64,000 nt of DNA from Candidatus Peregrinibacteria bacterium (GCA_963708185.1 OY970195.1:1088001-1152000), one strand, 5' to 3'; numbered from the stretch's first letter, positions 42,746 through 60,372 are shown. Translations and numbers: made by a program. The notes: a model not told the origin generated them from the letters alone.

Positions 42746-42836
42746 AATTTGGTCAATAAAGCTTGAACAGAGTAGCCGAAATCCTTTCAAAATACCAGGC
42801 ATTATGGCTACAGGCCGCTCATGCTATAATCTCCTC

Positions 42837-43931
42837 ATGCACGAATACAAGCAAAAGCTGGAAACGATCAAAAGCGAGGTCGATCACGCCGTCAAAAAAG
42901 TAAATGTTCCGTCGCTCGAGGGAAAGATCAAGCTGCTGACCGAAGCCACGCAAAAGCCGGACTTCTGGCAGCACCAGGAAGAGGCGCAGCGCATCACCAA
43001 AGAGATCAACGGCCTGCAGAAAGAGGTCGATTCCTGGAAAAAAATCCAGGGCGACTGCAGTGAACTGAGCGGTCTTCTGCCTTCGATCAAGCCGGAAGAC
43101 GACCCGGAATCCGCGGAAGAGTTCAAGAAAATGGTGGACGATCTTGAAGCGCAATGGCACAAACTTGAAATCAAAACGTTTCTCAACGGCAAGTATGACA
43201 CCTGTAACGTCATCTTGAGCATCCATGCCGGCACCGGCGGGAAAGACGCCCAGGACTGGGCCGAAATGCTGCTGCGTATGTACGTCCGCTATGCAGAACG
43301 CGAGGGTTTCGACGTCCAGATGTTCGACAAATCTTTGGGAGAAGAAGTGGGCATCAAAAGCGCCACGGTTTTCATCAAAGGCCATCTCGCGTACGGTTAC
43401 TTGAAGCGGGAGCGCGGCGTGCACCGGCTGGTTCGCCAGTCTCCTTTCAACGCCAAGCACAGCCGTGAAACGTCGTTCGCTTTCGTGGACGTCCTGCCCG
43501 AAATTCCAGAAGAGGAAGCTCCGGAAATCCGCAAAGATGATTTACGAATCGATACGTTCCGCTCCGGCGGCGCGGGCGGTCAGAACGTCAACAAAACGTC
43601 TTCGGCGGTGCGCATCACCCATATTCCCACGGGGATCGTGGTGGTATGCCAGGACGAACGCAGTCAGTTGCAAAACAAGGAACGTGCCATGAAAATCCTT
43701 CACGCCAAACTCGTGGACTTAATGGAAAAACAGAAGGTCACGGAACTCAACGAACTGAAGGGGGAACGCGTGGAAATCGCCTGGGGAAACCAGATCCGGT
43801 CCTATGTTCTGCATCCCTACACCATGGTCAAAGATCACCGCAACGGCCATGAGGAACACAACGCAGAAGCCGTCCTGGACGGTGATCTCGACGGGTTTAT
43901 CGAGGCGGAACTTAAAGGCGTGCGGGAGTAA
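42837..43931 (+). CDS. prfB: Peptide chain release factor 2 (continuous ORF)
   Basis: HAGTGG, DWAEML, GVHRLVRQSPF (SPF motif), GAGGQNVNKT, WGNQIRSYV. Confidence 0.97.
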   Translation: MHEYKQKLETIKSEVDHAVKKVNVPSLEGKIKLLTEATQKPDFWQHQEEAQRITKEINGLQKEVDSWKKIQGDCSELSGLLPSIKPEDDPESAEEFKKMVDDLEAQWHKLEIKTFLNGKYDTCNVILSIHAGTGGKDAQDWAEMLLRMYVRYAEREGFDVQMFDKSLGEEVGIKSATVFIKGHLAYGYLKRERGVHRLVRQSPFNAKHSRETSFAFVDVLPEIPEEEAPEIRKDDLRIDTFRSGGAGGQNVNKTSSAVRITHIPTGIVVVCQDERSQLQNKERAMKILHAKLVDLMEKQKVTELNELKGERVEIAWGNQIRSYVLHPYTMVKDHRNGHEEHNAEAVLDGDLDGFIEAELKGVRE

Positions 43932-43934
43932 TAT

Positions 43935-44047
43935 GCAGCGATTGAGTACTTCGCGAAAAGACGCGGTTATTTCGTTTGCCGGCGAAATGCCGCTCTCGCT
44001 CGGCCTTGGCCTCCGCGGCGCTTTTCTTGCAAGTACTCAATCGTTGC
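43935..44047. repeat. 113-bp inverted-repeat element with internal hairpins (MITE/REP-like or structured RNA)
   Basis: GCAGCGATTGAGTACTT...AAGTACTCAATCGTTGC ends, GAAAAG/CTTTTC inner stem, two internal hairpins. Confidence 0.75.
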
Positions 44048-44080
44048 CTTTATACTTCCTTTGAATTTATTTTTGTTCTT

Positions 44081-44587
44081 ATGGGACTCTTAAGGATGGA
44101 ACACGGCAAGGATAATCTTATTTTGCGGACGGTTTCCAAGCCCGTCTCAAAGTTCGACCGGAAACTTTCAAAATTCATCGAAGACATGAAAGTGACGATG
44201 GACCATGAAAAGGGCGTGGGATTGGCGGCACCGCAGGTCGGCGTGAACGATCGTGTGGTTATCTGTAAATTCAACCATGACACGCCTCACGAGATGATCG
44301 TCGGCATGGTCAATCCCGTCATCACCAAAAAAGCGGAGGAGATGATTCTGGGCGAAGAAGGGTGCCTGAGCCTCCCGGGGAAATATGACTCCATCGCACG
44401 CCACGCAGCGCTGACGGTGAAATACCAGGACGCGAAAGGACGCGAGAACGTCTTGAAACTCAGCGGCTTCAACGCGCGCATCGTCCAGCACGAAGTCGAT
44501 CATATTGACGCGAAACTCTACATCGATCACCTTCTGGACGAAGCGACGATTGCCCTGAAAAAGGAGGAAGAAAAACGCCAAAAATAA
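44081..44587 (+). CDS. def: Peptide deformylase
   Basis: GVGLAAPQVG, EGCLS, QHEVDH. Confidence 0.97.
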   Translation: MGLLRMEHGKDNLILRTVSKPVSKFDRKLSKFIEDMKVTMDHEKGVGLAAPQVGVNDRVVICKFNHDTPHEMIVGMVNPVITKKAEEMILGEEGCLSLPGKYDSIARHAALTVKYQDAKGRENVLKLSGFNARIVQHEVDHIDAKLYIDHLLDEATIALKKEEEKRQK

Positions 44588-45137: not shown

Positions 45138-48100
45138 ATGAAAAATTTTTTCCATTTAACGGGCAGGTCTCTTTACGGATTCCAGCAGCATAACCGTTTC
45201 GTTTTCCAGGATGGGGGCCAGACCGAATCCTTCGCGCTTGCAGGTATAGAGGCAGGCCAAGAAAAACAATTATCTCCGGAAAATGGGAAGGAGGCTCTTG
45301 TTGCCCAATACAAACAGGCCAAGGAAACGATCGACAGCCAGGCGGCTCAATACAAAAAAAAGTTTGAAGGGAAAGAGGATGGTGATAAAGCCCAGGCAGC
45401 AATTGAAAAAGCCCGCGGAGATGCTCAAGAAAAATTAGCGGCATCGTATAACCAGATGGTCGGACAGTTGGAAAAAAATTCCGAGACGACGGCAAACGAA
45501 CAGGTAAACGCCATCATTTCCTACCGCAAGGAAAAAGCAGAAGGTAAATACAACGACGCCCTCATCTATGAGACAGTCCCGGGAAAGGCCGGCTTTACAT
45601 GGAGCCCGAAGGGCAAAGTCGGTGCAGATAAAAGCAACGAATGGAACCATCTGGGTGAGGGTGATTTCAAAGTGGCGCTGACCGCAATGATTAAAGCCGT
45701 CTACGTTGCCGAGGGTCCAAAAGCGGCAGATGATCTTGTCAACAAGATGAAGCACCAAAAGCTGGGGTTTGATGAAATGCAGGCCGATCCAGAATATGCT
45801 TTCGGGCAGGGCACTTACCATGATCCTCCGTTGATCCAGTTCAACCCGGACATGGACAACGACGAAAATGGTAACACACGTAAATTGACCGGTCTTGTTT
45901 TCGGTTACGCTCATGCCGCAAGAAACCGTCTTGAAAATGAGGATGCTCGTGAAGCATATTTTTCCTACCTGGCCAGCTCGGGAAAAAAGGCCGGCGCCGC
46001 ACCGCGATCCATGGATCCGGACGACATATTGACTCCCGACCAGTGGCTTGCACAGTCCGGGAATGAAAAATACCTCGGTGCCGCCAAAAAACTCGATGAA
46101 GAAAAACTCAACGAGGAACGGACCGCTCAAGTGGACGATTACCTCGGCAAACTTTCGAACACTAAACAACGTGGAGAATTAAAAGGCCTTCTTCTTGGAC
46201 GTTTGCAGGGAGAAAGCGATCCCAAAAAATGGAACCAGATCATGCGCGAAACTTCCGCCAGTGCATTTGGGATGACCCTTGATGTATACAGCAAAACCGA
46301 ATGGTCTGATCTTGATAAATCCCATCGTTCCAGCATCGATGATTTTGTGAAAAAAGCGCAGGCCAATATGGGGAAATATGTCCTGGAAGAAGGCCAGAAC
46401 CATGACGGTAAATCCGCCGGATATGTTGCGGGCCTTTTGATGAGGGCGGAAGAAAAATTCAAGGACGATCCCGCGATGCTTGCCAAGTATAAAGAACAAC
46501 TCAAGGCTATCACCGACTCCGAAGATCTCAAGAAAAAAATGGGCGATAATCTTGCGAATTCAGAATATTTTTCAAAAAGAGTGGGCGAAGTTGAAGACAA
46601 CTATTCTGCCAAAAAAGATGCCACCGAGAAGCTGAGCAAAGCGAATGACGCACTTTTCGATATCGTCAAGCAGGAGCTGCCTTCGCCGGATAAATTTGTT
46701 GCCGCTGCCAAAGAAGAAAAGGACGAAAAATACAAAAAAATTGGTGAGAAATACCGCAATCAGGAACGCTATGCCGACGACATGATCGCCAAAATTCCTG
46801 CAGACAAGGTCAAGGAACGCAATTATATCCGCAGTATTTTGATCGCTGCCGTAGGCAGGGAAACCGATCCCGATAAAATCAAGGCCCTGGGCGAAGCGGC
46901 ATTAAAAGATAAAGCCGGATTGAACCTTGATCCGGACAAACTTGGAAGCGTTGATTATGAAAAAAACCTCAAGGCTTTTGTTGATGCTCATACCGACTTT
47001 ACCGAGAATGGCAAAAAAATGGACGACCAGTCCAAAAGTTTGGCGGCAGGCTTGCTTTATGCAGCGGAAGTCAAATACAAGGATGAGCCGAATAAGGATA
47101 AAATCCTTGCCGCATATAAAAAGTATCTCAAGGGGAAAATGGATACTCTCGGTAAGGATTCCGATAACCAGGAAGATATTGAAAAACTCAAGTTGAAGCA
47201 GTCTTTGCTTGAGGATACCATCGATAAGGGAACGAGGGATAAAATCCTTGCCGATATTGATAAACTTCAGACAAAACTCTACAACAAAAGCTGGAATGCT
47301 ATGGCTTGGCCGGATACTTTTAAAGAGGACTTTAGCGACAACGAACAACTCATCACCGATAATAAAAACTTTTTAGATAAACATGGAACCCGGGAAAAGG
47401 TAGGCACTTTTCAGCCCGCAAACCGTGAGATCGATGCAATCCTGGATGAGTTTAAAAAAGACCATGCCGATGCGTATAGCAAGAATGAGGAAACTATCAA
47501 AGGAAAAATTGTCGAGTTCCATAAACGCATGGCGAGCAGAAATACCGATCCGGAAAAAGGAGAGGTGATTAAAACCCCTGGAGAACGGCTCAAACTTCTG
47601 GCAGAACTCCAGGGATATCTCTCGAATATGGCTGATGATGGGGTCGAAGAAAACCAGTATATTGATGCCACAGAAAAATATACTTATACCACAAAGATTC
47701 TTGAGGCATCCACAAATATCAATGAAGCTAAAAAGTATGTTCAGGGAATGGCTGAAGGTCTGGGCTTTGACGTCAAAAAAGACCAAAAGGCGATAGATGC
47801 GCTGAAGGCTGTCAATGACGCGAAACCGGAAGACAGGGCTCATGTTATGGCCGAACAGATTGCCGCACTTTATAAAGATTCTCCAAAACATCCTGAAAAT
47901 CCTTTCACGAAAGAGGATTTCGACGATTACAGCCAGTACATCCTTGATAAAAAGACTGCTCCGAAAACTCCGGGCGGTGGAACGGGTGGAGGCAGAGTCC
48001 CGTCCGTCGGACCTTCGGTTGCGCCGGGCAATGGAACTCCGGGAGGAACAAAAGGCCCGGAAATTGTTTCCAGCGTGAGCATCGACATTAGTGCAGCCCC

Positions 48101-48398
48101 GGTTGAAATCAAAATAGATCATAAGAAAGACCGCATGGAAAAACCTCCCCAATGGCTCGCAGGAAAAAGGGATGACATTCTCAAAAAATACAATCAAGAT
48201 GCCAGAAAAAATGATCTCTACGTGGTTCGGAGAGGGAAAGATGAATATGTGGCAGAGGTTTCGCCACTGATAGATTGGGATGGGAATACTATCGTCAACT
48301 ATTACAACAAACCTCCCGAACAAGGGAAAAAACCTGATGCCGGCGTGAAAGTTGCCAGCGCTGATTCAACGGAAAAACCGGATCCGGATAAAAAGTAA
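45138..48398 (+). CDS. Large orphan helical-repeat protein (1086 aa) with R-x-V-F leader
   Basis: N-terminus MKNFF...NRFVFQDGG; internal repeats AGLLxxAExKxKDxP...YKxxL; Gly/Pro linker before C-terminal domain. Confidence 0.85.
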   Translation: MKNFFHLTGRSLYGFQQHNRFVFQDGGQTESFALAGIEAGQEKQLSPENGKEALVAQYKQAKETIDSQAAQYKKKFEGKEDGDKAQAAIEKARGDAQEKLAASYNQMVGQLEKNSETTANEQVNAIISYRKEKAEGKYNDALIYETVPGKAGFTWSPKGKVGADKSNEWNHLGEGDFKVALTAMIKAVYVAEGPKAADDLVNKMKHQKLGFDEMQADPEYAFGQGTYHDPPLIQFNPDMDNDENGNTRKLTGLVFGYAHAARNRLENEDAREAYFSYLASSGKKAGAAPRSMDPDDILTPDQWLAQSGNEKYLGAAKKLDEEKLNEERTAQVDDYLGKLSNTKQRGELKGLLLGRLQGESDPKKWNQIMRETSASAFGMTLDVYSKTEWSDLDKSHRSSIDDFVKKAQANMGKYVLEEGQNHDGKSAGYVAGLLMRAEEKFKDDPAMLAKYKEQLKAITDSEDLKKKMGDNLANSEYFSKRVGEVEDNYSAKKDATEKLSKANDALFDIVKQELPSPDKFVAAAKEEKDEKYKKIGEKYRNQERYADDMIAKIPADKVKERNYIRSILIAAVGRETDPDKIKALGEAALKDKAGLNLDPDKLGSVDYEKNLKAFVDAHTDFTENGKKMDDQSKSLAAGLLYAAEVKYKDEPNKDKILAAYKKYLKGKMDTLGKDSDNQEDIEKLKLKQSLLEDTIDKGTRDKILADIDKLQTKLYNKSWNAMAWPDTFKEDFSDNEQLITDNKNFLDKHGTREKVGTFQPANREIDAILDEFKKDHADAYSKNEETIKGKIVEFHKRMASRNTDPEKGEVIKTPGERLKLLAELQGYLSNMADDGVEENQYIDATEKYTYTTKILEASTNINEAKKYVQGMAEGLGFDVKKDQKAIDALKAVNDAKPEDRAHVMAEQIAALYKDSPKHPENPFTKEDFDDYSQYILDKKTAPKTPGGGTGGGRVPSVGPSVAPGNGTPGGTKGPEIVSSVSIDISAAPVEIKIDHKKDRMEKPPQWLAGKRDDILKKYNQDARKNDLYVVRRGKDEYVAEVSPLIDWDGNTIVNYYNKPPEQGKKPDAGVKVASADSTEKPDPDKK

Positions 48399-48410
48399 CA
48401 TCTCTGCTGC

Positions 48411-51400
48411 ATGCCAGAAAATCTCCAGGAACAACTTGATCAGCGTATTGAAAACAAGGAGCAGGTTTCCGCCCTGGATGCTGCCGATGCCTACGCTCAA
48501 ACCATTGAAAGTCACCGCAGGGAGTACATCGCCAAAGGCGGCACTCCCGAAAATTTTGAAAAGGACGAAAAAGCTTTCGTGGAGAAAGCCCGGGAAATCC
48601 GTAATAAGCAGCTCGACAAGATCGGGCTTTTGAACCAGGACCTGGAACGAAAAAAAATTTCCGTCGTCGACAAGACGAGGACCGCTGAGCGAAAAGAACG
48701 TTATGAAAATGCCCAAAAATACGGCTGGGATACAACCGATCCGGACAAAGAGGGAAACATGGACGATTTTGAAGGCACGGGTGACGACAACAAATGGGGC
48801 TTTGGACGAACGGCTCTTGCCGGTTATGTTTCCGGTTTGCAAATGACCGATCCGGCGATGGCTTCCGAAGCTATGAGAAAAGTGCAAGAAGCCTATAAAA
48901 AAACTTCTTCCTGGGGTGATCATTACGTCAGCAACCAGGATATCCGTGACATTATCGGCAATGAGTATCTTTCACAACTGGAGGGGCACCATTTGACGGA
49001 CCGCGCGATGGCATTTCTGGCTTCCTATTTGCGGCAGGCTGATTCTTTTTTTAAAAATTCCGACGAAAACAATACCTATAAAGGTTATGTCGTCGACGCC
49101 ATCGATGACCGATTGAACTCCACGCAGCAACCCGCCGCCCAGGCGGAACATGAGAGTTCCACCGGATGGGGAATCGGCGGGGGCGTCATCGGAACAGCTC
49201 TTGCCATACCGCTCGGACCTATTGCCCCCATTGGCGGCGCTATTATCGGTTCACAGGCTGGCGGCAGTGAGGTCGAAACGTATGCCAGCAAAAACGCACG
49301 TGCTGAGGCACAGCTCAACGCACTTTCAACAATATTGACCCCCAAGGAGTGGAAGGAAGCCTGGACCCAGCGCCTCAAGAACACCCTGGAACCTTTCAAA
49401 AAACTTTGCGACACCATTGTGGCGGCAAATCCGGAATTTACATTCCAAAACCAGGACGTCAAGGACATGCTCGGCAAAAATGCCGACGACCTGATATATT
49501 CCGATGAAACCAAACTCATTGCGGCCAAGGAGAAAGCGCGCGAGGAGCTTCGCGATTTCATGCAAAAGAAAAAAGACGAGTATTCCGGACAGGTCGAAAG
49601 CAATAAAAAAAGCGCTGCCGACCTCAAGGCCAGATACAAGACTCTCCGCATCCCGACGGTCAGCGATGACGAATGGAGCGCTCTGGATACAAGCCTCAAC
49701 CAGCAGGCACAAGACATGGACTCGATCGCTTTTGTTTCCAACACTTCGATGGAAGACCTTGCCGCGATGTGGGGGAAACTGGTGATGGTCCGGGACGGCA
49801 ACGGCCTTTTGCGCAATCAGTTCGACGCTCTGTCGTCACGCATCAAGGATGCGGAAGAAAAAGAGCCGGCCATCGCAAAATTTACCGCCGACAAAGACCT
49901 TCTCGAGACGTACGATCCCAAGACCAAACAGTTCAGCTATACCGCCAACGGGATGCGCTTTGAAAGTGCAAAGGGGAAAGCGCAGGCGACGTTCGGCAAC
50001 CCGGAAATCAACAAAATTTTTGAAAGCAAAATTTCGCCGTTTTTCACCAATATCATCTCAAAGTACAAACTTTCTTCTGATGAGAAAAAGCATGCGGATG
50101 AGATCATGTCCAAGGCCGACAAGAACGATGAAAAGCAGATGGCCGCGGCGAACAAAGAGGTGATGGAATATGTCATGGAGCGTTTCCAGTCGAGAATGAA
50201 AGCAGACGATAAAGAAAAAATCGACAAGATCAGTGCCCTCATTGATCAGGCTGACAAGGATTCGACCTTCAGTTTTGACCATATGCCTTCGGCGGAAGAG
50301 CTGCAAAAGGCTTACGACGAAAAATTCGTTCCGGCGTGGGAAAAAGCCGCCAAAGATTTTGACGCTCAATACGGCAAGGCCACGGGCGAACAACCTTCGG
50401 GCACGGTGGGCGGCGGGTTTCTTGGCGGAGAAGAAACGCCGGAAACCGCTCCTTCAAGCCTTGATCCTTACAGCGACCATTGGTCCAAAGGAACGGACGT
50501 TCCGCTTGATCCGGACTACAAAGGTTTTACCGGCGGGCTGGAAGTCGCCCCGAACATCGAAGATTTGAAATTCCGCGACGTCAACACCCATAAAATTCTT
50601 CTGGCGGTTCCCGGAGGCACCGGAGCCACCGCCAATGAAATCACTCTTTCAGAGCCCGAAGGCACCATCCACAAGGTGGACAGCCTGAGTTTCGTCAAAG
50701 TCAATTACCAGGGCAAAATCTACTACGCGGCCATGGAGTATCTTCAAAAGAACGACCAGTCGCTTATTGCCGAACGGGAAGCCAAGAATGGATCTCCAAA
50801 GATGCCCGGAACTCCGGCAAATCCCGAGGTCCAGCAGGGGCTGCCGAAAGGTCTTGAATTCCTGGGCAAGGTCAACGGCGAATACCGCGACGCCCTGGAA
50901 AGGATTTTGCGCGACAGCGAAAAACCGGGCGGTGCTCTCTTTGACCTGTATTTCAACAAAAAAACGTTGCCGTGCCGTTTAACCAAAGCTCCCAAAGGAC
51001 AATACATCGTGAACTGGGAAGGCGGTTCGTTCACCTACCGTAACCTGAACGAGGTCATGATCGGCATTAACAACGGCTTTTTGCTTCAACAGATTACGTA
51101 CGGAGCGCTGTTGTCGCCGAAATATTACGAAGCTTACGAAGATAAAATCGACAGTTTCAAGGACGACGTCAAAGCGACGGGCAGACCCGGGGAGGTCTAT
51201 TTTGAACTCGACTGGTCCGGTGCCGGACGCGGCGAAGGAAACGCCCAGGTCTGGGCGACGGCACTGCCGAACGGGCTCGTCAACTATCACATCCACCGTG
51301 ATCACGTGGACATCAACGGGGGCAACGACCGCAATGGCATCGCGGGAAGTTTTGACGATTTCATGCAGCAGATCGCGCACATCAAGGAGTGGTCGGAGTA

Positions 51401-51830
51401 TTACGAAGATAACCGCGACGACAGAAAACTGTCCCAGGCCGTGATGAACCGTGAATGGTTCTACGCGCAACTGAATAATCCCCAGACTTTCTACGACGCC
51501 GAGAGCGCCATCGGCCGGCCGGTTTCTTTTAATCTCATCAGCAACGGCGTGATGCAGATGTTCCTGGACTGGGGCGGAGGAGCGGCGCGTGATACCGGCC
51601 ATAACGCGATGCTGAACGTGTGGGCCGACAACAGCGGCAGACTGAACTACATTCTGAATTATAAAGGCAAAGGTCCCAGGGGCGTCGCCAAAGACATCCC
51701 TGAACTTATCAACATTGTCGGGAATCAACGAGCTGCCGTTCTCCAAACCTCACCCGGCGAAACGCCCAAAGAACAGCCAAAAAATACGAGCGGCGTCCCG
51801 GTGGCATCTCCCAATGAAAAAGCGGCATAG
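48411..51830 (+). CDS. Large orphan protein (1139 aa): N-terminus paralogous to 45138, glycine zipper, SH3-like segment, duplicated C-terminal module
   Basis: GWGIGGGVIGTALAIPLGPIAPIGGAIIG; FVKVNYQGKIYYAAMEYL; two LDWxG...N...NY modules. Confidence 0.85.
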   Translation: MPENLQEQLDQRIENKEQVSALDAADAYAQTIESHRREYIAKGGTPENFEKDEKAFVEKAREIRNKQLDKIGLLNQDLERKKISVVDKTRTAERKERYENAQKYGWDTTDPDKEGNMDDFEGTGDDNKWGFGRTALAGYVSGLQMTDPAMASEAMRKVQEAYKKTSSWGDHYVSNQDIRDIIGNEYLSQLEGHHLTDRAMAFLASYLRQADSFFKNSDENNTYKGYVVDAIDDRLNSTQQPAAQAEHESSTGWGIGGGVIGTALAIPLGPIAPIGGAIIGSQAGGSEVETYASKNARAEAQLNALSTILTPKEWKEAWTQRLKNTLEPFKKLCDTIVAANPEFTFQNQDVKDMLGKNADDLIYSDETKLIAAKEKAREELRDFMQKKKDEYSGQVESNKKSAADLKARYKTLRIPTVSDDEWSALDTSLNQQAQDMDSIAFVSNTSMEDLAAMWGKLVMVRDGNGLLRNQFDALSSRIKDAEEKEPAIAKFTADKDLLETYDPKTKQFSYTANGMRFESAKGKAQATFGNPEINKIFESKISPFFTNIISKYKLSSDEKKHADEIMSKADKNDEKQMAAANKEVMEYVMERFQSRMKADDKEKIDKISALIDQADKDSTFSFDHMPSAEELQKAYDEKFVPAWEKAAKDFDAQYGKATGEQPSGTVGGGFLGGEETPETAPSSLDPYSDHWSKGTDVPLDPDYKGFTGGLEVAPNIEDLKFRDVNTHKILLAVPGGTGATANEITLSEPEGTIHKVDSLSFVKVNYQGKIYYAAMEYLQKNDQSLIAEREAKNGSPKMPGTPANPEVQQGLPKGLEFLGKVNGEYRDALERILRDSEKPGGALFDLYFNKKTLPCRLTKAPKGQYIVNWEGGSFTYRNLNEVMIGINNGFLLQQITYGALLSPKYYEAYEDKIDSFKDDVKATGRPGEVYFELDWSGAGRGEGNAQVWATALPNGLVNYHIHRDHVDINGGNDRNGIAGSFDDFMQQIAHIKEWSEYYEDNRDDRKLSQAVMNREWFYAQLNNPQTFYDAESAIGRPVSFNLISNGVMQMFLDWGGGAARDTGHNAMLNVWADNSGRLNYILNYKGKGPRGVAKDIPELINIVGNQRAAVLQTSPGETPKEQPKNTSGVPVASPNEKAA

Positions 51831-51887
51831 CAAAAGGATTCATTCGTTTTCCATCAATTTACCATCTATATTCTCACCAAAATTCAT

Positions 51888-52769
51888 ATGAAAAAATTTA
51901 TTTGTTTCAGAAATTTCGCAAACGTTAACCGCTTGGTTTACGCGGCCGGCGGGGAGAAACCATCACAGCCTGAAAATGCCGAGGTGATTCCAAAAGATGC
52001 GGATTTAACTCCGGCGAAACTTGATGAAATTTCCAAAGCCGTCGATAACAATATCAGCGCCGTCGAAGACTATTATAAGGGCGGTGAATCCAAGCTCATG
52101 CATCATCCCGATATGCCGAAGCAGGTCAAAACCCAGTTGGATCAGCTGAAGCAGTTAAAAATCCAGCTCGACCAGGTCAAGGCAAATCCGGCAGGCGCGC
52201 GTCAGGTCCTCGGAAAAATTTACCGTATTTTTACCCAACTTGAAGCACACAGTGAGGAACGGTACAAAGCCGATATCGCATCGCATGATCCTCTTGTCGG
52301 CCTGGGTTTCAGCATCGATACTCCGGAACTCGCACCGGCAGCTCCGAAAACGACCAAGGCTGAAAATGCTCCAGAGACAAAAGAAACACAGCAACAGCTG
52401 GTACGAAGCGCCGTCGAAAACATTGCGCGCGCCGGCGGAGAATTGACCCAGCCCATGCTCGACGCCCTGAAAACCCAATTCAAAGGAACAAATGTCCTTT
52501 CCTACACCCTGAATATTCAGGGAAATCCGGTACTGGTCTTCATTGAACGTTCTCCCGACGGGAAAGGTTTCCAGGCGAAGGGTGTCCGCTACAACGCCGA
52601 AGTCCCTCTGGAAAAACAGGCTTCCTCCTGGGATACCGCAAGTTTCACCTATACCCATTCCTTTGACGCCTTGGACAACTCACCTCCATCCGTTCCCGAC
52701 AAAAGCATTCAAGAGTACGTTTCCCAGGGCAAAAAAGGTAAAAAACTCAACCCGACGGCGCTTGGCTAA
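51888..52769 (+). CDS. Orphan protein (293 aa) with R-x-V-Y leader
   Basis: MKKFICFRNFANVNRLVYAAGGEKP. Confidence 0.82.
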   Translation: MKKFICFRNFANVNRLVYAAGGEKPSQPENAEVIPKDADLTPAKLDEISKAVDNNISAVEDYYKGGESKLMHHPDMPKQVKTQLDQLKQLKIQLDQVKANPAGARQVLGKIYRIFTQLEAHSEERYKADIASHDPLVGLGFSIDTPELAPAAPKTTKAENAPETKETQQQLVRSAVENIARAGGELTQPMLDALKTQFKGTNVLSYTLNIQGNPVLVFIERSPDGKGFQAKGVRYNAEVPLEKQASSWDTASFTYTHSFDALDNSPPSVPDKSIQEYVSQGKKGKKLNPTALG

Positions 52770-52793
52770 AAACCCTTATCTTCATCGAACATC

Positions 52794-53111
52794 ATGGATC
52801 AATCTCTCCAGGACGAGCTACAGGAACTCATCGAATCTTCTTTGAGTATCGCCACGCTCAGTGACGACAACCAGGCCGCGTTGAAAAAACGATTGCTCGC
52901 TCTTCCTGAGGACGAGATGAGAAGGGTCGTCGAGGTTTTGCGCGGTGAGCAGAAACAGCAGTATGAAGCCATGAAAGGGCTAGTGCAAAAAATCGAGAAC
53001 GCCAGCACCACCCTCAAAAAGACTTTTCTCAAGGAGCGCGAAAAAGAAGAAACCAAACAGTCCGACCAGAAAGCCGACCAGCTCATCAAAAAGCTGGATG
53101 ACATGGATTAA
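52794..53111 (+). CDS. Small helical protein, paralog 2 of 4
   Basis: SIATLS...LLALPE...LRGEQ...ADQLIKKL. Confidence 0.82.
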   Translation: MDQSLQDELQELIESSLSIATLSDDNQAALKKRLLALPEDEMRRVVEVLRGEQKQQYEAMKGLVQKIENASTTLKKTFLKEREKEETKQSDQKADQLIKKLDDMD

Positions 53112-53127
53112 GGCGCATGCAGCGGGT

Positions 53128-54186
53128 TCAAAACGGGACGATGTCCCTGATTTTTTTCACGGTCACCAAAAGAAAATACCAGAAAGGCTGGTAAACAATT
53201 TCACGCGCGGGCTGGTAATCCACTCGTTGCCCTCCGAATTTGAGCTTGAAATCGGTGACGCCGGCCCAGGGATGTGTCGGTTGATTTTGCGGAGCGATCC
53301 CGAGAAAATCATACCATTTGCAGCCTGCGGTTTTGGCGTCGAGGAGGGCGCGCCACTGCAGAAGATACGGCGCCATGACGTTGCGGTGTTCGTTGGAGGA
53401 CGCTCCGAAATAGTAGATCGCGGTATCGCGGTAGAACGTGACGATGATGCCCGCCACGATTTCATCTTTATACTCCGCTAGGTAAAGTTTGGCTTCTGGA
53501 TGCGATAAATCGTGACCATGGCCGTTGCGTCCGGGATGTAAGGTCGAAAGCATGTCTTCATAAAATTTTTTGTTGTGACCCGAAAATTTATCGCGCGAGG
53601 TGGTTTGTGAAAGAAGCCGGTAAAAGGCGTCGATATCTTTTACGTTGCCGTCACTGGCCCGGACCGAAACGTGATGTTTTTCAGCGACCCTGATGTTATA
53701 GCGGCCCTTGGGTTTCATCTGCGATAGAAGCCGCTCTTCGGAGAAAGAAAGATCCAGCAGAAGCGTGTTTTCCGGCTGGTAGTGCGCATGGGCTTTGCGT
53801 GAGGGAAGATCTTTCCAGTAGATTTTTTCTTCTTGGGGAAGCGGGGGGTCGAAGCGGAAAAATACCGCATTTTGTTGCCTGGCGAGATCGCGGATTTTTT
53901 TGAGGAGGTGTTTGAGCGCCCGGTGATCGTGGTAATCGGCCAAAGGGCCGCGAGGGCAATACAGCCAGCATTTTTTGAATGGAAGCTCCTGGCGAATAAT
54001 AAGGGCTGAAGCCATTATTATGCCGTTTTCGTCCTCAACGGCGTAACACCAGAATTTTTCACGACCTGCGAGGCTGGTCTGAAATTCTCCCCACTGGGGT
54101 GTCTGGTGGATGGAACCGAGTGGATGTTTCCCCACAAAAGACAGGTATTTCGGCCAGTCATTTTTGGTGATCTCAATGACTTTCAT
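53128..54186 (-). CDS. FemABX-family peptidoglycan bridge aminoacyltransferase
   Basis: HQTPQWGEF, YCPRGP, MKPKGRYNIRVA, YYFGASS, APYLLQW, YDFLG, FKLKFGG. Confidence 0.93.
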   Translation of the reverse strand: MKVIEITKNDWPKYLSFVGKHPLGSIHQTPQWGEFQTSLAGREKFWCYAVEDENGIIMASALIIRQELPFKKCWLYCPRGPLADYHDHRALKHLLKKIRDLARQQNAVFFRFDPPLPQEEKIYWKDLPSRKAHAHYQPENTLLLDLSFSEERLLSQMKPKGRYNIRVAEKHHVSVRASDGNVKDIDAFYRLLSQTTSRDKFSGHNKKFYEDMLSTLHPGRNGHGHDLSHPEAKLYLAEYKDEIVAGIIVTFYRDTAIYYFGASSNEHRNVMAPYLLQWRALLDAKTAGCKWYDFLGIAPQNQPTHPWAGVTDFKLKFGGQRVDYQPAREIVYQPFWYFLLVTVKKIRDIVPF

Positions 54187-54304
54187 AAGCTTAAAAATCA
54201 GGCAAAACCTACTTTACCATATCATTGTGTCGGTGAAACGAAGAGTGTTGCGATATTGGGCTTTTTATAGTATAATTATATGATCAAATAAACTCAAGAT
54301 ACAT

Positions 54305-54661
54305 ATGGCTGATTACGATCTTATCAAGAATACCGAACTGCGGCTTCTCGTTACAGCTTCGGAAAGTATCCGCAGCTTGAAGGAGCAGGAAATTCAACAG
54401 TGGGTTGAACGTATTGCCGCACTGCCTCCAGAGGGAGAACGGGCGATGCTCGTAGCCCTTCGTGATGAACAGGAACAAATACGCAAAGCAAAACTTGCGA
54501 AAGGCATTACCCCTGAAATGGAGCGCGCGGAGCGTGAAAAGAAAATGGAGAAAGTGTACGCCATCAAAAAAGATTTTGAAAAAGTCGTGCGAATAGAAAA
54601 CGAAAAAACTGCCAACAATGAATCAAGCGCAGAAGCAGAATCTTTACTTAAAAAACTTTAA
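54305..54661 (+). CDS. Small helical protein, paralog 3 of 4
   Basis: SIRSLK...IAALPP...LRDEQ...AESLLKKL*. Confidence 0.82.
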   Translation: MADYDLIKNTELRLLVTASESIRSLKEQEIQQWVERIAALPPEGERAMLVALRDEQEQIRKAKLAKGITPEMERAEREKKMEKVYAIKKDFEKVVRIENEKTANNESSAEAESLLKKL

Positions 54662-54677
54662 ACATTTTTCCCGTTCT

Positions 54678-56291
54678 ATGAAAAACAAACACCTCAAAAT
54701 ATTTCTTCAAGATGAAAACGGCAGTTTTTTCAAACAGCCACGCGTTGTTTTTCAAAACGGAGCTGAAAAACCACAGGAGAACGAGAATAAAGCCCCCGAA
54801 CAGAAAAAAGAAGTTTCACAGCTTGGCTATGATTTTGCCCTCAGTGATGCAAGAAAAGCCATTGCTCCTTATCTGGAAACGAAAATAGAGAATGCAAACA
54901 TCAATGTCGCCGCCCTGAAAGCAAAGGCGGATCTTGATGCACTGGATGTTCGCGTCGACGTTCTTGATAAGGCGGCAAAAGAGGCCAACCTCCAGAAAAT
55001 GCGATCGATCATGGAACGATTTTCCGCTTTCCCCATCGTCAAAGAAAAACAGCAAAAGGCCGTCAAACTCCGAGAGGATCTGATAAAAGATTCCGAAGCA
55101 AAAGCGAAAAAAGCCATTGATGATGTAGTGACTCAATTCGCGAACGTCAAAGGATTCGAGATGAGCGGCGCCCTGAAAACCGACCTTGATGATTACGAAC
55201 AGTCGGTTGAAGGAGGCATGGACATACAGATTGAAGCAACGGCCGGAGAACTCAACACGAACCTGGCGAATCTTGACGGTGCGGGCTTAACCGCCGAAGG
55301 CGCAGCTCTCGACGGAGTCATCAAAAAACTCGACGGAACCGATGTCACACTGAACAAGTACATTGAAAACGCTCTTCGCGATGCCAAGCCGGTAGCGGAA
55401 GGAAAAATCCTTATGGAGATGAGCAAAGGCAAAGACCCTGAAGCCGCCAAACAGTTCATCTCCAAGCAGATCGATGCAAGAATCGCTGCACTTCCCCACA
55501 AAGATGAAATCGACAACGACCGTTCGCGCGGGCAAGAAGCAAAACTGACTCAATTGCGCGATCAGATTCTGGCATCGCTGGATGCTGCAAAAGGTCCGAA
55601 AGACGGCCCGAAAAGATTTACGATCCTGGCGTATTTCCAGGACCAGCTCAACGCCATGGACGTGAAACCAGGCACTCCGGATAATGAGAAACCTTCCCGC
55701 GTCCGGGACGCTTACGGCAAACAGGTTGACCTTGAACTTCAACAGCAAACCGACATTCTGGCCAGGAGAAGGCAGGAATCAGGAACACTGGCCCAGAGAC
55801 TCTTCAACGCCCAGGAACGAGCCAAGAAGGATCCCGACTACAAGGTTGACCCCAAATTGAAAGCTGATGCAGGGAAAGCCTACCTGGCGTTCCGTGAACA
55901 AGAGAAGGCGGTCAAAAAACTGCAGGGCGCGCAGAAAGAGGTCGGTGTTCTTCCACAAGAACCACCGCTGACCAAAGCGCCGGAAATCGGCCCAATCGCC
56001 ACCGCAAAAAGCGTCAAGGATACCATCGACACCTTAAAGTTCAATACCATCGACGGCACCGGAAAAGCCAAAGCCACCATCGACGGCGTTGACGTAACCA
56101 TAACCAAACTCGGACCTCCTTCCTTCAGTACTTCCGTGGATGTTGAAGATAATCCCGATCTCGGCATCACCACCAACATCTCCGGAGACCCTTTTTCCGT
56201 TTCCGAAAGTCTCGCCTGGGCCATCCGCCAGAAAAAAATCACTGACCGAGGCAAAGCCAAGCCCGACGCTTCAGTCGCGGAAAATAAGTAG
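54678..56291 (+). CDS. Orphan helical protein (537 aa) with R-x-V-F leader
   Basis: MKNKHL...FFKQPRVVFQNGAEKP. Confidence 0.83.
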   Translation: MKNKHLKIFLQDENGSFFKQPRVVFQNGAEKPQENENKAPEQKKEVSQLGYDFALSDARKAIAPYLETKIENANINVAALKAKADLDALDVRVDVLDKAAKEANLQKMRSIMERFSAFPIVKEKQQKAVKLREDLIKDSEAKAKKAIDDVVTQFANVKGFEMSGALKTDLDDYEQSVEGGMDIQIEATAGELNTNLANLDGAGLTAEGAALDGVIKKLDGTDVTLNKYIENALRDAKPVAEGKILMEMSKGKDPEAAKQFISKQIDARIAALPHKDEIDNDRSRGQEAKLTQLRDQILASLDAAKGPKDGPKRFTILAYFQDQLNAMDVKPGTPDNEKPSRVRDAYGKQVDLELQQQTDILARRRQESGTLAQRLFNAQERAKKDPDYKVDPKLKADAGKAYLAFREQEKAVKKLQGAQKEVGVLPQEPPLTKAPEIGPIATAKSVKDTIDTLKFNTIDGTGKAKATIDGVDVTITKLGPPSFSTSVDVEDNPDLGITTNISGDPFSVSESLAWAIRQKKITDRGKAKPDASVAENK

Positions 56292-56309
56292 TCATTAACT
56301 TTATACGTC

Positions 56310-56615
56310 ATGACCAAAGAACAGTACCTTGCCAACATCCGGAAATTCGACGTCATCAACAGTCTGAGCAGCGAACTCCGCCAGTCGTATATGAATGCAG
56401 ATCAGGTTACCTTTGAAACCAATTTGCGTATGCTTGAACTTGCGCAGGGCGACGTGAAATCCGCAAAAAAGACCTACCTGACGGCGGTGCATGAGGCCGC
56501 GGCCGTGTATGAGAAAGATGCCCAGACGGCCAGACACGACCTGACGAAGAAAGCGGAAAGCAGGGTCCAGACCTCGGATGAGGCCGCGGCCGAAAAACTT
56601 ATTCAAAATCTTTAA
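56310..56615 (+). CDS. Small helical protein, paralog 4 of 4
   Basis: VINSLS...LELAQ...AEKLIQNL*. Confidence 0.8.
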   Translation: MTKEQYLANIRKFDVINSLSSELRQSYMNADQVTFETNLRMLELAQGDVKSAKKTYLTAVHEAAAVYEKDAQTARHDLTKKAESRVQTSDEAAAEKLIQNL

Positions 56616-56634
56616 AAAACTTATTTTTAAATCT

Positions 56635-57756
56635 ATGAAAAAATTTCTTCATTGTCTGCCGTCGTTCCGTTCTTCATTCTTCCCGAAGCGAGCGGTTTTT
56701 ATGGGCGAAGTTCCTTCCCAGGCAGACCAGCAGGTCGCAAAAGAAGCCATCAAGGCCAAAGCTCCGGAACTTGAAAAAAAAGGCGAAGCTTTCCAGCAGC
56801 AGCTGGATGCCATGAGCGACGAACAGCTGCAGAAACTGAATGTCGACACGGAAGCAAAAAGCGCCAAAGACGATGTGGACAAAACATTCCAGGACATCAT
56901 GAACGATCCCGTCGTGAACCCGAAGCTCGGAGAAGGAAAGTTCTACACTCCCGGTTCTTATGAGACGCATGCTGATATCCAGCCTTTGCGCGAAGCACGC
57001 GACAACGCGAAAAAGGCCATTGAAAAAGCCCAGGAGGACTGCAAGGAAAAACAGAAGGAAATTACCGACGTCCTCGATCTTCAGCGCAACTCCAGGGTCA
57101 ATGTTGAAGAAGGTTTTAAGACCATGGCCTCCAACAAAGCAGAGATGATGAAAATCCTGGACTCCGATCCGGCAAAATTGAAGATGGAAGACATCCAGCA
57201 ACTCGATCAGAAGTTGAAAAGCGTTACCGGCACCAATGAGTTTCTCACCAATACCATTTACGCCAATCTTGACCAGAATCTTCAGAAGGTCGATGAAATG
57301 AAATTCAAGGACTCTCTTGCGAGCGTGAAGTTTGCGCATGATCTCATGCAGACTGACCTGAAATCTTTCGGCGATACTTTCGCCCAAGTGGATAACGCTT
57401 CTCAGATTTACAAATCTGCTTCAGGTTTTGTGGAAGGCATGAAGCTTCGTTCGCAAGCCAATGCCAGCAACGACGCAACGAAGTTCGACCAGTCTAAGGC
57501 CATGCTTGATGCCGCCAAAAAAAGCGCAGACGGATTCCGTACTATCCGCATCGGCGTTCCGGGAGCCGCTCCCGCCGAAGCCGTGGCACGCGTTGGAACG
57601 ACCAGTGTTGAACATTATGAAGGTGGAGGGAAAGTTGTTGTTGAAAGCGAACCTATCCCGGGTGTAAGAACGGGCGTAACGACCGTTGAACAACCAACTC
57701 CGGGCGTACAACCTGTTGCAGTGGAAGAAAAACCCAAAGAAAAACCGGGCGCGTAA
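56635..57756 (+). CDS. Orphan coiled-coil protein (373 aa) with R-x-V-F leader
   Basis: MKKFLH...SFFPKRAVFMGEVP; C-terminal PGV/VE repeats. Confidence 0.83.
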   Translation: MKKFLHCLPSFRSSFFPKRAVFMGEVPSQADQQVAKEAIKAKAPELEKKGEAFQQQLDAMSDEQLQKLNVDTEAKSAKDDVDKTFQDIMNDPVVNPKLGEGKFYTPGSYETHADIQPLREARDNAKKAIEKAQEDCKEKQKEITDVLDLQRNSRVNVEEGFKTMASNKAEMMKILDSDPAKLKMEDIQQLDQKLKSVTGTNEFLTNTIYANLDQNLQKVDEMKFKDSLASVKFAHDLMQTDLKSFGDTFAQVDNASQIYKSASGFVEGMKLRSQANASNDATKFDQSKAMLDAAKKSADGFRTIRIGVPGAAPAEAVARVGTTSVEHYEGGGKVVVESEPIPGVRTGVTTVEQPTPGVQPVAVEEKPKEKPGA

Positions 57757-57853: not shown

Positions 57854-59041
57854 CTAGTTCATCTTCTTGCGAATGAAGGCCGGGATGTCGAGTTCGTTTT
57901 CGGTGGATTTGATCGGCTGGCCGGTGCTGTTCGGAGTAGCCGTCACGCTTCCGTTGCCCATGTTCTGCTGGTTGAGCGACATGTGCTGGCGAAGAACGTT
58001 GGGACGTTCACGAGGAGTGTCGTCGAAGCCCGTGGCAACCACGGTGATTTTGACTTCGCCGGTATAGGAATCGTTGATAACTGCACCGAAAATGATGTTT
58101 GCTTCAGGATCAGCGGCCTCGGTAATGATGCGTGCAGCTTCGTCGACCTCGAACATGGAAAGGTCGTTGCCTCCGGTGACGTTGAAGAGTACGCCCTTGG
58201 CGCCGTCGATGGACAGCTCAAGAAGCGGAGATTCAATGGCGGCCTTTGCAGCTTCGATGGCGCGGTTTTCACCGGTGCCGTAGCCGATGCCCATGAGGGC
58301 GGAGCCGGCATTCTCCATGACGGTCTTGACGTCGGCGAAGTCCACGTTGATCATACCGTGAACGGTAATGAGGTCAGCGATGCCCTGGACACCCTGGCGG
58401 AGCACGTCGTCCACAACGGTGAAGGCTTCGGTGATCGGAGTTTTTTTGTCGATAATGGAAAGGATCTTGTCGTTCGGGATGGTAATGAGGGTATCAACCT
58501 TGCTCTTGAGGTTCTCCAATCCGTCGTCAGCCTGCTGGCGGCGGCGGTGACCTTCAAACGAGAACGGTCTGGTGACGACACCGACCGTCAAGATACCCAT
58601 TTCCTTGGCAATTTCCGCTACGACGGGAGCGCCGCCGGTACCGGTTCCTCCACCCATACCGCAGGTAATGAACACCATATCGGCGCCTTCAATAGCCTGG
58701 CGAATCTCCTCAGCATTCTCCTCGGCTGCCTGGCGGCCAACATCCGGATTGCTTCCGGCACCCAATCCGCGGGTGGTTGCTTTTCCTACGTTGATCTTTA
58801 CCGGTGCTTCAGAATGATACAGCGCCTGGGCATCGGTGTTGATGGCAATGAATTCGATACCGCGAAGGTTGGCCTTGATCATCCGATTGATGGCGTTTCC
58901 GCCGCCTCCACCGATACCAATGACTTTAATGGACGCGACCGGATTCATTTCCGGAATGACCTCAAGGGTCTTCTTGCCCATCTGATTTCCTCCTGAAAAC
59001 AGATTGCGCAGGTTATCTTTTTGCTGATGAGGAGTTGCCAT
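57854..59041 (-). CDS. ftsZ: Cell division protein FtsZ
   Basis: [32 protein letters not shown]-terminal LDIPAFIR. Confidence 0.99.
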
Positions 59042-59133
59042 ATATTGAGGAGTAAAGGGTATTTTTTAAAAGCGGACTATAATTGTTAAACGAATTTTGA
59101 TTTATTGTCAATAAAATATTGTGATTTCGCCTC

Positions 59134-60372
59134 TTAGGGAAAAAGTCCTTTAAACCAGTCTTTCATTCCGCCCATCGTCTTGCGGAAATTCAACCCTTTC
59201 AACGAGAACCCGTAGGTCCTGTTTTCCAGCCTGCTTCCCCAAAGAATAAGGCCAATAGCTGTAGCGTAGGCCGGATCGTCAATCTTGTCCACCACGCCGT
59301 CGAAATTCTGGGGGAAACCGATTTGAACGGGCAGGTTCAACGTTTCACGGGCAAGGTCTATGGTACCTGGCATTTTCACGCTTGCGCCCGTAAGCACGAC
59401 CCCCGCAGGCAACATACCATCACGGTGGATTTTGGCGAGTTCGTCTTTGACCAGAATGAAAATTTCGTGATAGCGGGCTTCGATGATTTCCGCCATCATT
59501 TTCTTGGAAACTTTCTGGGTGTCGATTTTGCTCATCAAAGAGAGGTCGATGACTTCACGTTCGCTCACGTCCGTGGGCAGGCAGGTTCCGTATTCGATCT
59601 TGATCTTTTCGGCGGTATCGATGGAGGTCCGCAACCCGATGGCGATATCGTTCGTGACGTTTTCTCCTCCGACCGGCAATACGGCCGTGTGAAGCGTCGT
59701 TCCTTCTTCAAATACGCACAGCGAGGTTCCTCCCGATCCGATGTCCACCACGACGACGCCGAGCTCTTTCTGGCGCTTGCTCAAGACCGCTTCCGCACTG
59801 GCAAGACAGGAGGGGATGATGTCGTCAATATCCACGCCGGCCTGCAGCACGCATTTTTCGATGTTTTTGACCGCGGGAACCAGGCCGGTAATGATGTGAG
59901 CGTCCACTTCCAGTCGGATACCGGTCATGCCGACCGGATATTTGATGCCTTTCTGTTCATCAACGGTAAAAGACTTCGGAATGATGCGCAGGATGCGGCG
60001 GTTGCCGGGAATGGAAACTGCCTGGGCCGCTTCCAGCACGCGGTCGACGTCATCTTCGGTGATTTCGTTGCCGGCATGGGAAACAGCGATAACGCCTTTG
60101 GAATTGATGGATTCGATGTGGGTTCCACCGATACCAAGGAAAACATGATTGATGGGTTCTCCGGCCATTCTTTCGGCATCTTCGAGCGAAGCTGAGATGC
60201 TGTTGATGGTCTCTTCCACGTCAATAATAGCCCCCTTGCGCATACCCGTGGATGGAGCGATGCCTACACCGATGATGTTTGGGACCTGGGACTTTTCTTC
60301 GAGGGTACCGACGACCGTTCTGATCTTGGAGCTGCCAATGTCGAGACTTGCTATGACTCGTGCTTTTGCCAT
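59134..60372 (-). CDS. ftsA: Cell division protein FtsA
   Basis: LDIGSSKI, PVGMTGIRLE, DIGSGGT, GVVLTG, amphipathic C-terminal helix. Confidence 0.98.
   Translation of the reverse strand: MAKARVIASLDIGSSKIRTVVGTLEEKSQVPNIIGVGIAPSTGMRKGAIIDVEETINSISASLEDAERMAGEPINHVFLGIGGTHIESINSKGVIAVSHAGNEITEDDVDRVLEAAQAVSIPGNRRILRIIPKSFTVDEQKGIKYPVGMTGIRLEVDAHIITGLVPAVKNIEKCVLQAGVDIDDIIPSCLASAEAVLSKRQKELGVVVVDIGSGGTSLCVFEEGTTLHTAVLPVGGENVTNDIAIGLRTSIDTAEKIKIEYGTCLPTDVSEREVIDLSLMSKIDTQKVSKKMMAEIIEARYHEIFILVKDELAKIHRDGMLPAGVVLTGASVKMPGTIDLARETLNLPVQIGFPQNFDGVVDKIDDPAYATAIGLILWGSRLENRTYGFSLKGLNFRKTMGGMKDWFKGLFP

Follow-up and report, generated by a model that had tools for sequence, protein, structure and literature searches.

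A 64,000-nucleotide stretch of a Candidatus Peregrinibacteria genome (GCA_963708185.1, OY970195.1:1088001-1152000), referred to here as the window and numbered from its first letter, contains a run of plus-strand genes that match no Pfam or NCBIfam family, with one FemAB gene on the other strand within the run. The run is flanked by a release-factor gene and a peptide deformylase gene on one side and by ftsZ and ftsA on the other, and a Mur ligase gene as well as the FemAB gene lies beside the cluster. Four of the encoded proteins, called carriers A, C, D and E below, begin with a similar short peptide built around an Arg residue, and four small helical proteins are encoded among them (Table 1). 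The original prediction, made from the DNA of the window, had the four carriers starting at 45138, 51888, 54678 and 56635; the N-termini read as stated there, with the Arg codons at 45195, 51930, 54741 and 56689, respectively. We find that this peptide is a genuine tag, that it sits at the N-terminus of proteins with unrelated bodies within one lineage, and that it is linked to the family of the small genes.

The tag spans ~12 residues and reads [LF]-F-x-[EP]-[NKA]-R-[LF]-[VI]-[FY]-[MQ]-x-[GP]-[PG]-E-x-P. Residues were counted over 78 distinct carriers and numbered from the Arg (position 0), which is present in all 78. The core that follows the Arg has Leu (49) or Phe (17) at +1, Val (58) or Ile (15) at +2 and an aromatic residue at +3 (Phe 60, Tyr 16, Trp 2). 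Ahead of it are Leu (30) or Phe (21) at -5 and Phe (58) or Leu (11) at -4, a conserved [LF]-F pair that adds to the motif as first described, followed by Glu (28) or Pro (19) at -2 and Asn (25), Lys (23) or Ala (12) at -1. Behind the core we counted Met 25 and Gln 24 at +4, Gly 33, Pro 23 and other residues 22 at +6, Pro 26 and Gly 18 at +7, Glu 29 at +8, and Pro 28 at +10. The R-x-V-[FY] core of the first description was thus retained, whereas its obligatory Gly was not. The leader ahead of the motif was 4-29 residues long (median 17; Phe 15%, Lys 13%, Leu 11%, Asn 10%), leaders of only four residues also occurring. The 40 residues past the motif consist largely of Glu (14%), Lys (13%), Ala (11%), Pro (8%) and Gly (7%), with few aromatics.

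The frames bear on the starts, and the codons place the selection on the peptide. Of 70 hits read in relatives (17 + 40 + 13), 69 offer a Met at a distance of 4-29 residues from the Arg, and a stop codon precedes that Met closely, often by just 0-6 codons; the remaining hit runs off the start of its contig. The same spacing of Met and Arg, and the same nearby stop, hold for all six carriers of the present genome. The starts used in the original prediction are favoured by the conserved Met-Lys start and by the relatives, though two of the frames are open a little further upstream. All six Arg codons are used for the invariant Arg (AGA 24, CGT 18, AGG 13, CGC 12, CGA 6, CGG 5), six codons encode the Leu at +1, and the remaining motif positions also vary synonymously. 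This indicates that selection acts on the peptide and not on the RNA or DNA. The peptide was kept across at least two orders with synonymous codons changing freely, and the true starts do not lie downstream of the motif.

Table 1. Genes of the carrier cluster and its surroundings (window coordinates)
Feature	Position	Strand	Remarks
1348-aa open frame	32325-36371	-	no Pfam family; outside the cluster
Release-factor gene and peptide deformylase gene	42618-44587		flank of the run
Small helical protein, paralogue 1, 120 aa	44746..45108	+	ends ...AEEILKKL-stop, 29 bases before carrier A
Carrier A, 1086 aa	45138..48398	+	leader 45138-45194, core R-F-V-F 45195-45206, then polar linker
Protein B, 1139 aa	48411..51830	+	no tag; separated by 13 bases from A and by 57 bases from C
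Carrier C, 293 aa	51888..52769	+	Arg codon 51930, core R-L-V-Y 51930-51941
Small helical protein, paralogue 2, 105 aa	52794..53111	+	no carrier gene after it
FemAB gene	53128-54186	opposite
Small helical protein, paralogue 3, 118 aa	54305..54661	+	ends ...AESLLKKL-stop, 16 bases before carrier D
Carrier D, 537 aa from Met 54678	54678..56291	+	frame open from 54618; core R-V-V-F 54741-54752
Small helical protein, paralogue 4, 101 aa	56310..56615	+	ends ...AEKLIQNL-stop, 19 bases before carrier E
Carrier E, 373 aa from Met 56635	56635..57756	+	frame open from 56578; core R-A-V-F 56689-56700
ftsZ and ftsA	57854-60372	-	flank of the run

Within the genome (1,437,033 bases, 99% complete), a six-frame scan with the strict pattern M[KR][KNR]-x(8-30)-R-x-V-[FY]-x(1-2)-G found four places, all of them the known ones. 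A relaxed scan together with the motif profile added two carriers, at genome positions 199395 (+, 710 aa) and 879443 (-, 1222 aa), and no other profile match in the genome rose above noise (next best E = 0.068). Tag carriers in this genome are therefore six proteins, not dozens, and carriers range from 115 to 2283 aa; the genome-wide enrichment in large orphans that had been anticipated was not borne out. The bare core R[LFVA][VI][FY] is common in the genome and was not enriched at N-termini (0.20 versus 0.17 per 1000 residues); the signal resides only in the full motif with its flanks. BLASTP with seven large proteins gave a best match of E = 0.002, itself N-terminal, and no similarity outside the N-termini.

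Among relatives, 82 of the 201 sampled genomes of the order had a match at E<=0.01 with a 27-row profile, where ~2 would be expected by chance, and the relatives listed had one to five matches each. With a 62-row profile, 25 of 301 genomes sampled from the class matched at E<=0.001. Matches outside the order were confined to 12 genomes of three families (9/31 in f28, 2/2 in f30, 1/12 in f34), and families f25, f26 and f29 (0/40 each) and f40 (0/20) had none. A phylum-wide sample, which serves as a negative control, gave matches in 3 of 401 genomes, all three from the window's own order and none outside it. When the 32-position motif profile was run against 1.84 billion representatives, a database for which the motif is too short, six proteins matched at E<=0.001, namely five further N-terminal carriers of 145-284 aa and one unrelated repeat protein. 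A word-based search with residues 1-42 of the 199395 carrier returned only that protein, and a 44-position alignment searched against longer proteins returned eight at E<=10, all unnamed or 'hypothetical' and none with a Pfam domain. The view that the tag is lineage-specific, strictly N-terminal and common to unrelated proteins is supported.

The tag resembles none of the classical export signals, as the original prediction had held, and both hydropathy and residue counts over the 78 carriers confirmed this. The 9-residue Kyte-Doolittle maximum within the first 45 residues had a median of 0.96 and a highest value of 2.04, with a single carrier reaching 2.0, compared with 2.64-2.97 for five true signal peptides of the same genome; the tag thus has no Sec core. 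Tat signals were equally absent, since a second Arg at +1 occurred in 3 of 78 carriers, Arg was outside the six commonest residues at -1, and no hydrophobic core followed the motif Arg. Nor was there a lipobox: Cys made up ~1% of leader and ~0% of linker residues and was among the commonest residues at no position from -8 to +11. The segment after the Gly or Pro is rich in Glu, Lys and Pro without a hydrophobic stretch, unlike a class III prepilin signal; genuine prepilin-type N-termini occur elsewhere in the genome and differ in look from the tag. A fixed Gly-Gly at +6/+7, as in double-glycine leaders, was also missing. Finally, the segment from -7 to +4 was amphipathic neither as a helix nor as a strand. 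Its helical hydrophobic moment was 0.32 compared with 0.33 in shuffled sequences, only 5% of the segments lay above the 90th percentile of the shuffles, and a Pro occurred between -4 and +3 in 22 of 75 segments. The lack of amphipathicity together with the frequent Pro makes plain binding to the membrane less likely and favours a peptide that fits a groove of a partner.

Behind the tag the carriers have little in common. When the first 45 residues were removed from 72 carriers and the remainders compared by BLASTP, 36 were singletons and the rest fell into 12 clusters. Pfam matches in the 72 were limited to Phage_lysozyme2 (3), Lipase_GDSL_2 (2), PG_binding_3 (1) and LRV (1), and 76 of 78 bodies had no membrane segment, a single membrane-like stretch being present in the other two. 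Carriers A and C match no Pfam or NCBIfam family. Orthologues of A in the same genus were 32-43% identical overall and kept the Met-Lys-Lys start and the R-x-[VA]-[FY] core; with carrier D as the query, no homologue was found in the five genomes searched, four from the genus and one from the family. One carrier cluster combines a lysozyme-like domain with an SGNH/GDSL domain. The C-terminal SGNH domain resembled, by sequence, an SGNH hydrolase and, by fold, carbohydrate esterases and the peptidoglycan O-acetyltransferase domains of OatA and PatB. Judged by these likenesses, this client looks like an enzyme of cell-wall glycans that would act outside the cytoplasm. Most homologues of the cluster in the protein collection carry the tag, and one of three more distant homologues that lack it adds a 3D domain. 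An AlphaFold2 model of a lysozyme/SGNH carrier (17-row alignment) gave a pLDDT of ~30 for residues 1-62 and 80-95 for the body; tag and linker are thus predicted to be disordered, with no packing against the folded part.

The four small genes of the cluster encode paralogues that share the C-terminal end A-E-x-[LI]-[LI]-x-x-L, and all copies in the genome lie in this cluster. The DNA word AAAAAACTTTAAA upstream of three of the carrier starts consists of the last codons (Lys-Lys-Leu-stop) of the small genes. With a profile rebuilt on all fetched loci, a small-family frame ended at most 160 bases upstream of, and on the same strand as, 20 of 75 carrier genes, and in four further cases a family member started just downstream of a carrier; kin inflate these adjacency counts. 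In four genomes of the genus, the A orthologue is preceded by an orthologue of paralogue 1 (56-65% identity), and similar small proteins precede the carrier genes of two other loci (L016, L017). No neighbour other than the small gene recurred beside carrier genes. The 120-aa paralogue 1 was modelled by AlphaFold2 (mean pLDDT 84) as a small N-terminal helical bundle followed by one helix of 73 residues. The model had no fold match in the PDB at E<=0.001, the two listed matches being meaningless, and in the ESM Atlas it matched only Peregrinibacteria-type clusters (scores 0.82-0.84); the family has no Pfam match. Paralogue 2 is the copy most like the single-copy form found elsewhere in the class, and in the window's order a gene that occurs throughout the class seems to have multiplied, its copies becoming associated with carriers. 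A complex prediction that paired the small protein (6-row alignment) with residues 1-80 of A (5-row alignment) gave 'no answer' (score 0.01, mark 0.32) and counts neither for nor against binding.

For families f25, f26, f29, f40, f43 and f47, we observed one small-family match per genome in most of the listed genomes (loci L087-L101). The fetched copies were 124-174 aa long (104 aa at L102, family f21), their C-terminal end was acidic and rich in Leu, and most copies from L087-L101 shared the conserved word SESMNDEERQYW...LP.MT.EQ. At several of these loci the small gene lay beside a convergent gene of ~320 residues, a putative holA.

We also searched the 99%-complete genome for families that might read or translocate the carriers. 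Peptidase_Prp (PF04327), Peptidase_C39 (PF03412) and the FHIPEP gate of type III secretion (PF00771, SctV/FlhA) gave no match there, and their control searches matched 3, 7 and 4 of 14 genomes, respectively; VirB4 (PF03135) gave no match in the genome either. PF01580 had one match above the cut-off, in a 758-codon frame encoding an ordinary FtsK_SpoIIIE protein, and one weak P-loop match in a HerA/TraG-like ATPase; no multi-domain EssC/EccC-like ATPase was found. The genome has three T2SSE-type ATPases. The HerA/TraG-like protein, a membrane-anchored ATPase of 908 aa (genome 420609-423335, +; locus L104:1610-4333) with HerA (DUF87), TraG-D_C and T4SS-DNA_transf matches, was the only candidate secretion ATPase found. 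Matches to it occurred in 301 of 301 class genomes, mostly ~3 per genome, these being matches and not copy numbers. Known type IV secretion signals are C-terminal.

These properties would be best explained by a short linear docking tag around the invariant Arg, placed at the extreme N-terminus and joined to the body by a flexible tether rich in Pro, Glu, Lys, Ala and Gly. Such a tag would single out, in each genome, a changeable group of one to six proteins, unrelated and quick to evolve, all of them clients of a single reader that would be restricted to the Peribacteria/Peregrinibacteria part of the Patescibacteria. We infer that the tag is probably a docking peptide read in trans from its sharp 12-residue motif, its place near a free N-terminus, the tether, the changeable clients, the restricted range and the linked small partner. 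Of the two functions proposed originally, docking on a partner through a strand or peptide is the best fit, given that tag and linker are disordered and unpacked in the AlphaFold2 model and that the segment is not amphipathic. The replacement of the Gly by Pro, or its absence, argues against a Gly-specific cleavage site. The earlier reading thus holds in part, for an N-terminal tag specific to the lineage whose most probable role is docking on a partner; export or processing of the carriers is no more than plausible.

As to the outcome of docking, we further infer, with about an even chance of being right, that the tag sorts its clients, delivering them to a non-classical export or surface-delivery step. 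Favouring this are the one client family that looks cell-wall-active, the surface-protein pace at which the clients evolve and the absence of a classical signal. The small helical proteins encoded upstream would be dedicated partners, chaperones or adaptors, of some clients. In its most far-reaching form this would amount to an undescribed Peregrinibacteria export or delivery pathway, independent of Sec and Tat, in which a lineage-specific receptor reads the extended peptide through its Arg and aromatics, long-helix adaptors take part and the clients pass a single membrane; we think this possible, if rather improbable, and are similarly doubtful that the export route is categorically new. The upstream long-helix proteins, expanded from the class-wide single-copy gene, would in such a pathway be client-specific adaptors, and the cargo, including cell-wall-active enzymes, might be delivered onto or into a host cell. 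Patescibacteria are thought to live attached to other microbes, and, Sec and type IV pili aside, little is known of the means by which their large proteins reach the cell surface or pass beyond it. If the proposal is correct, the motif would offer a sequence handle with which the clients of a hidden sorting system could be listed in any Peregrinibacteria genome, and the tag could be used as a bait peptide to find the reader. Even if the carriers stay in the cytoplasm, they would be a clear case of a short linear docking motif common to unrelated bacterial proteins.

Several observations weigh against the proposal of a tag that sorts clients with the help of small partners. No small-family gene was detected upstream of 55 of the 75 carrier genes, and the small family occurs in 75 of the 301 class genomes, including families in which no tag was detected. 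Most carriers are helical proteins rich in Lys, Glu and Asp that could be cytoplasmic, and few of the 72 have a domain pointing to the outside. Three distant lysozyme/SGNH homologues (P0021, P0022 and P0023) have neither tag nor signal peptide, although some of these genes were called on short contigs and may be truncated at the 5' end; this family may reach its substrate by a route without the tag. The idea that a Sec signal substitutes for the tag in such distant homologues was ruled out by the same three proteins. No reader or translocon was identified among the families sought, no transport gene was consistently found beside carriers, and the HerA/TraG-like ATPase is present in tagless families too, so that its range does not follow that of the tag. 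Related genomes are also not independent, and our counts overstate the number of independent observations.

The leading alternative is a cytoplasmic docking motif without export, by which the tag would tether unrelated proteins to one hub, either the small helical paralogues or another protein. There is precedent in GpsB, a small coiled-coil adaptor to which several cell-wall enzymes attach through short N-terminal peptides. A short motif on a disordered tether suits a hub of this kind, as do bodies that lack a signal peptide and, but for the two with a transmembrane-like stretch, stay clear of the membrane. It would also account for the small long-helix proteins directly upstream of 20 of 75 carriers, whose predicted bundle and 73-residue helix would suit a coiled-coil adaptor, and for a cluster beside ftsZ, ftsA, FemAB and Mur ligase genes. 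Lysozyme-like/SGNH and PG_binding_3 cargo would, however, have no substrate in the cytoplasm, the bodies diverge at a very high rate, which one would expect rather of secreted or surface proteins, and the two other carriers of the genome lie far from division genes. We consider this explanation rather unlikely. A cleaved propeptide, ranked next, would make the tag the recognition site of a dedicated endopeptidase that removes the leader. The leader is indeed short, non-hydrophobic and common to unrelated proteins; a small or turn-forming residue (Gly or Pro) lies 6-7 residues after the Arg; and a leader varying from 4 to 29 residues around a fixed core is what one would expect if the site alone mattered. 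Neither PF04327 nor PF03412 was found in this nearly complete genome, however, with the control genomes matched, and the variable residue at +6, the lack of a fixed Gly-Gly and a hydrophobic spacing unlike the -4/-7 pattern of double-glycine leaders make cleavage improbable.

Third in rank is a membrane-targeting sequence, in which the leader rich in Phe, Lys and Leu would form, with the core, an in-plane amphipathic helix at the inner face of the membrane, much as terminal amphipathic helices hold MinD, FtsA and SepF at the membrane. The composition of the leader is compatible with this, as is the Gly or Pro straight after the core followed by a flexible linker. The hydrophobic moment no higher than in shuffled sequences, the frequent Pro in the segment and the leaders of down to four residues all speak against it, and an invariant Arg with a fixed four-residue core exceeds what lipid binding needs; we regard it as very improbable. 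The view that the carriers share no function, their likeness being due to one 5' gene segment that spread, to mis-called starts or to conservation at the RNA level, is largely refuted and the least credible of all. Four of the six carriers are clustered, which makes local duplication of a two-gene unit likely (each carrier is said, on this account, to follow a paralogous small gene), and the upstream DNA word is explained by the ends of the small genes. Against this stand the retention of the motif across at least two orders while the downstream sequence changed beyond recognition, the free synonymous variation, and the stops just upstream with a Met always at hand.

Our proposal of a docking tag was also set beside known systems. 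Like the tag, the signals of type III secretion effectors are N-terminal, non-hydrophobic, uncleaved and disordered, occupy the first 20-30 residues and occur on unrelated, fast-evolving proteins, and a small acidic partner of ~100-130 aa is encoded beside the client. Those signals, however, have no sequence consensus whereas the tag has a sharp one, FHIPEP was not found here, and type III chaperones have an alpha/beta fold, unlike the long helix and small bundle predicted for the small proteins. The LXG toxins of type VIIb secretion share with the carriers a conserved N-terminal part on polymorphic bodies, a single-membrane cell and small helical proteins encoded just upstream with a conserved C-terminal tail. 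The LXG domain is helical and ~200 residues long, in contrast to a 12-residue peptide on a disordered tether, and the EssC-like ATPase was not found here, the one FtsK_SpoIIIE match being ordinary. By analogy, the arrangement appears to work like an effector-plus-chaperone module of type III secretion or an LXG-toxin-plus-small-partner module of type VIIb secretion.

Among peptides that are processed, double-glycine leaders are likewise short and N-terminal (15-30 residues), lack a hydrophobic core, often start with Met-Lys and precede unrelated cargo; the tag differs in having no fixed Gly-Gly and cargo of up to 2283 aa, and no Peptidase_C39 was found in the genome. The Prp-cleaved extension of L27 and of some phage capsid and scaffold proteins is also a short N-terminal peptide with an aromatic pair on unrelated proteins. 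It is read by one dedicated enzyme, whereas Peptidase_Prp was not found here; its motif differs, and a long disordered linker follows the tag. Peptides bound by a hub, such as the tails of penicillin-binding proteins on GpsB, the PilN tail on PilM and TonB boxes, resemble the tag in being short, conserved, close to the N-terminus, unstructured alone and present on several unrelated proteins. They belong to membrane proteins or receptors whose partners are known, unlike the 76 of 78 carriers without a membrane segment. The YSIRK, ESPR and KxYKxGKxW words are, like the tag, conserved at the N-terminus, in their case among the large surface proteins of a lineage; an ordinary hydrophobic signal peptide comes after those words, and none follows the tag. 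Full-text literature searches returned no mention of the motif. The passages searched of the 2016 Peribacteria genome paper (PMC4736985) contain nothing on it, and the supplementary tables of that paper might list some of the proteins.

The two carrier genes outside the window have different surroundings. The gene at 879443 adjoins the ATP synthase operon, and the four genes upstream of it have no Pfam match. That at 199395 lies between a pseudopilin cluster and a PilT-like ATPase gene. Within genome 194306-205317, four genes for proteins with prepilin-type N-termini (194.3-197.5 kb) and a putative tRNA synthetase gene, judged by its start only, occupy one side of this carrier, and five genes for small signal-peptide proteins and the PilT-like ATPase gene (201.6-205.3 kb, opposite strand) the other. 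The 1348-aa open frame of the window was not among the profile hits.

Protein B starts so close behind A and ends so close before C that it probably shares their transcript. It belongs to no family and matched no PDB sequence. We noted in it a Gly-rich hydrophobic stretch near residues 250-285 and two similar C-terminal segments (...LDW.G....G.NA..W...), which suggest an internal domain repeat. In one genome of the genus the orthologue of A matched as two frames (loci L030 and L027; G003:C5:30381-33291), a 175-codon frame with the tag and query residues 1-144 followed by a frame covering residues 151-974, which reflects a split gene, a frameshift or an assembly error.

A +1 frameshift fusion of small gene and carrier was considered for D and E, as shift-like sites (window 54640-54680 and 56595-56640) with CTT-TAA-A, the codon pattern of a release-factor-2 type +1 shift, precede both genes, and the +1 frame is open into the carrier. 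We rejected it and attribute the sites to chance because carrier A is read in the other frame, the +1 frame there closing after 60 codons, and because the stop in relatives often lies 0-6 codons before the Met. Carriers also occur in tandem. At L010 (G008:C16) a carrier follows a gene whose own product begins with a tag-like peptide, L009 has two carriers, and L076 has carrier, small gene, carrier and small gene in a row. The core word is possible in other settings as well: a 740-aa protein of the protein collection (P0024) has repeats each with K-E-Q-R-L-V-Y-Q, which gave eight motif-profile matches and are unrelated to the N-terminal tag.

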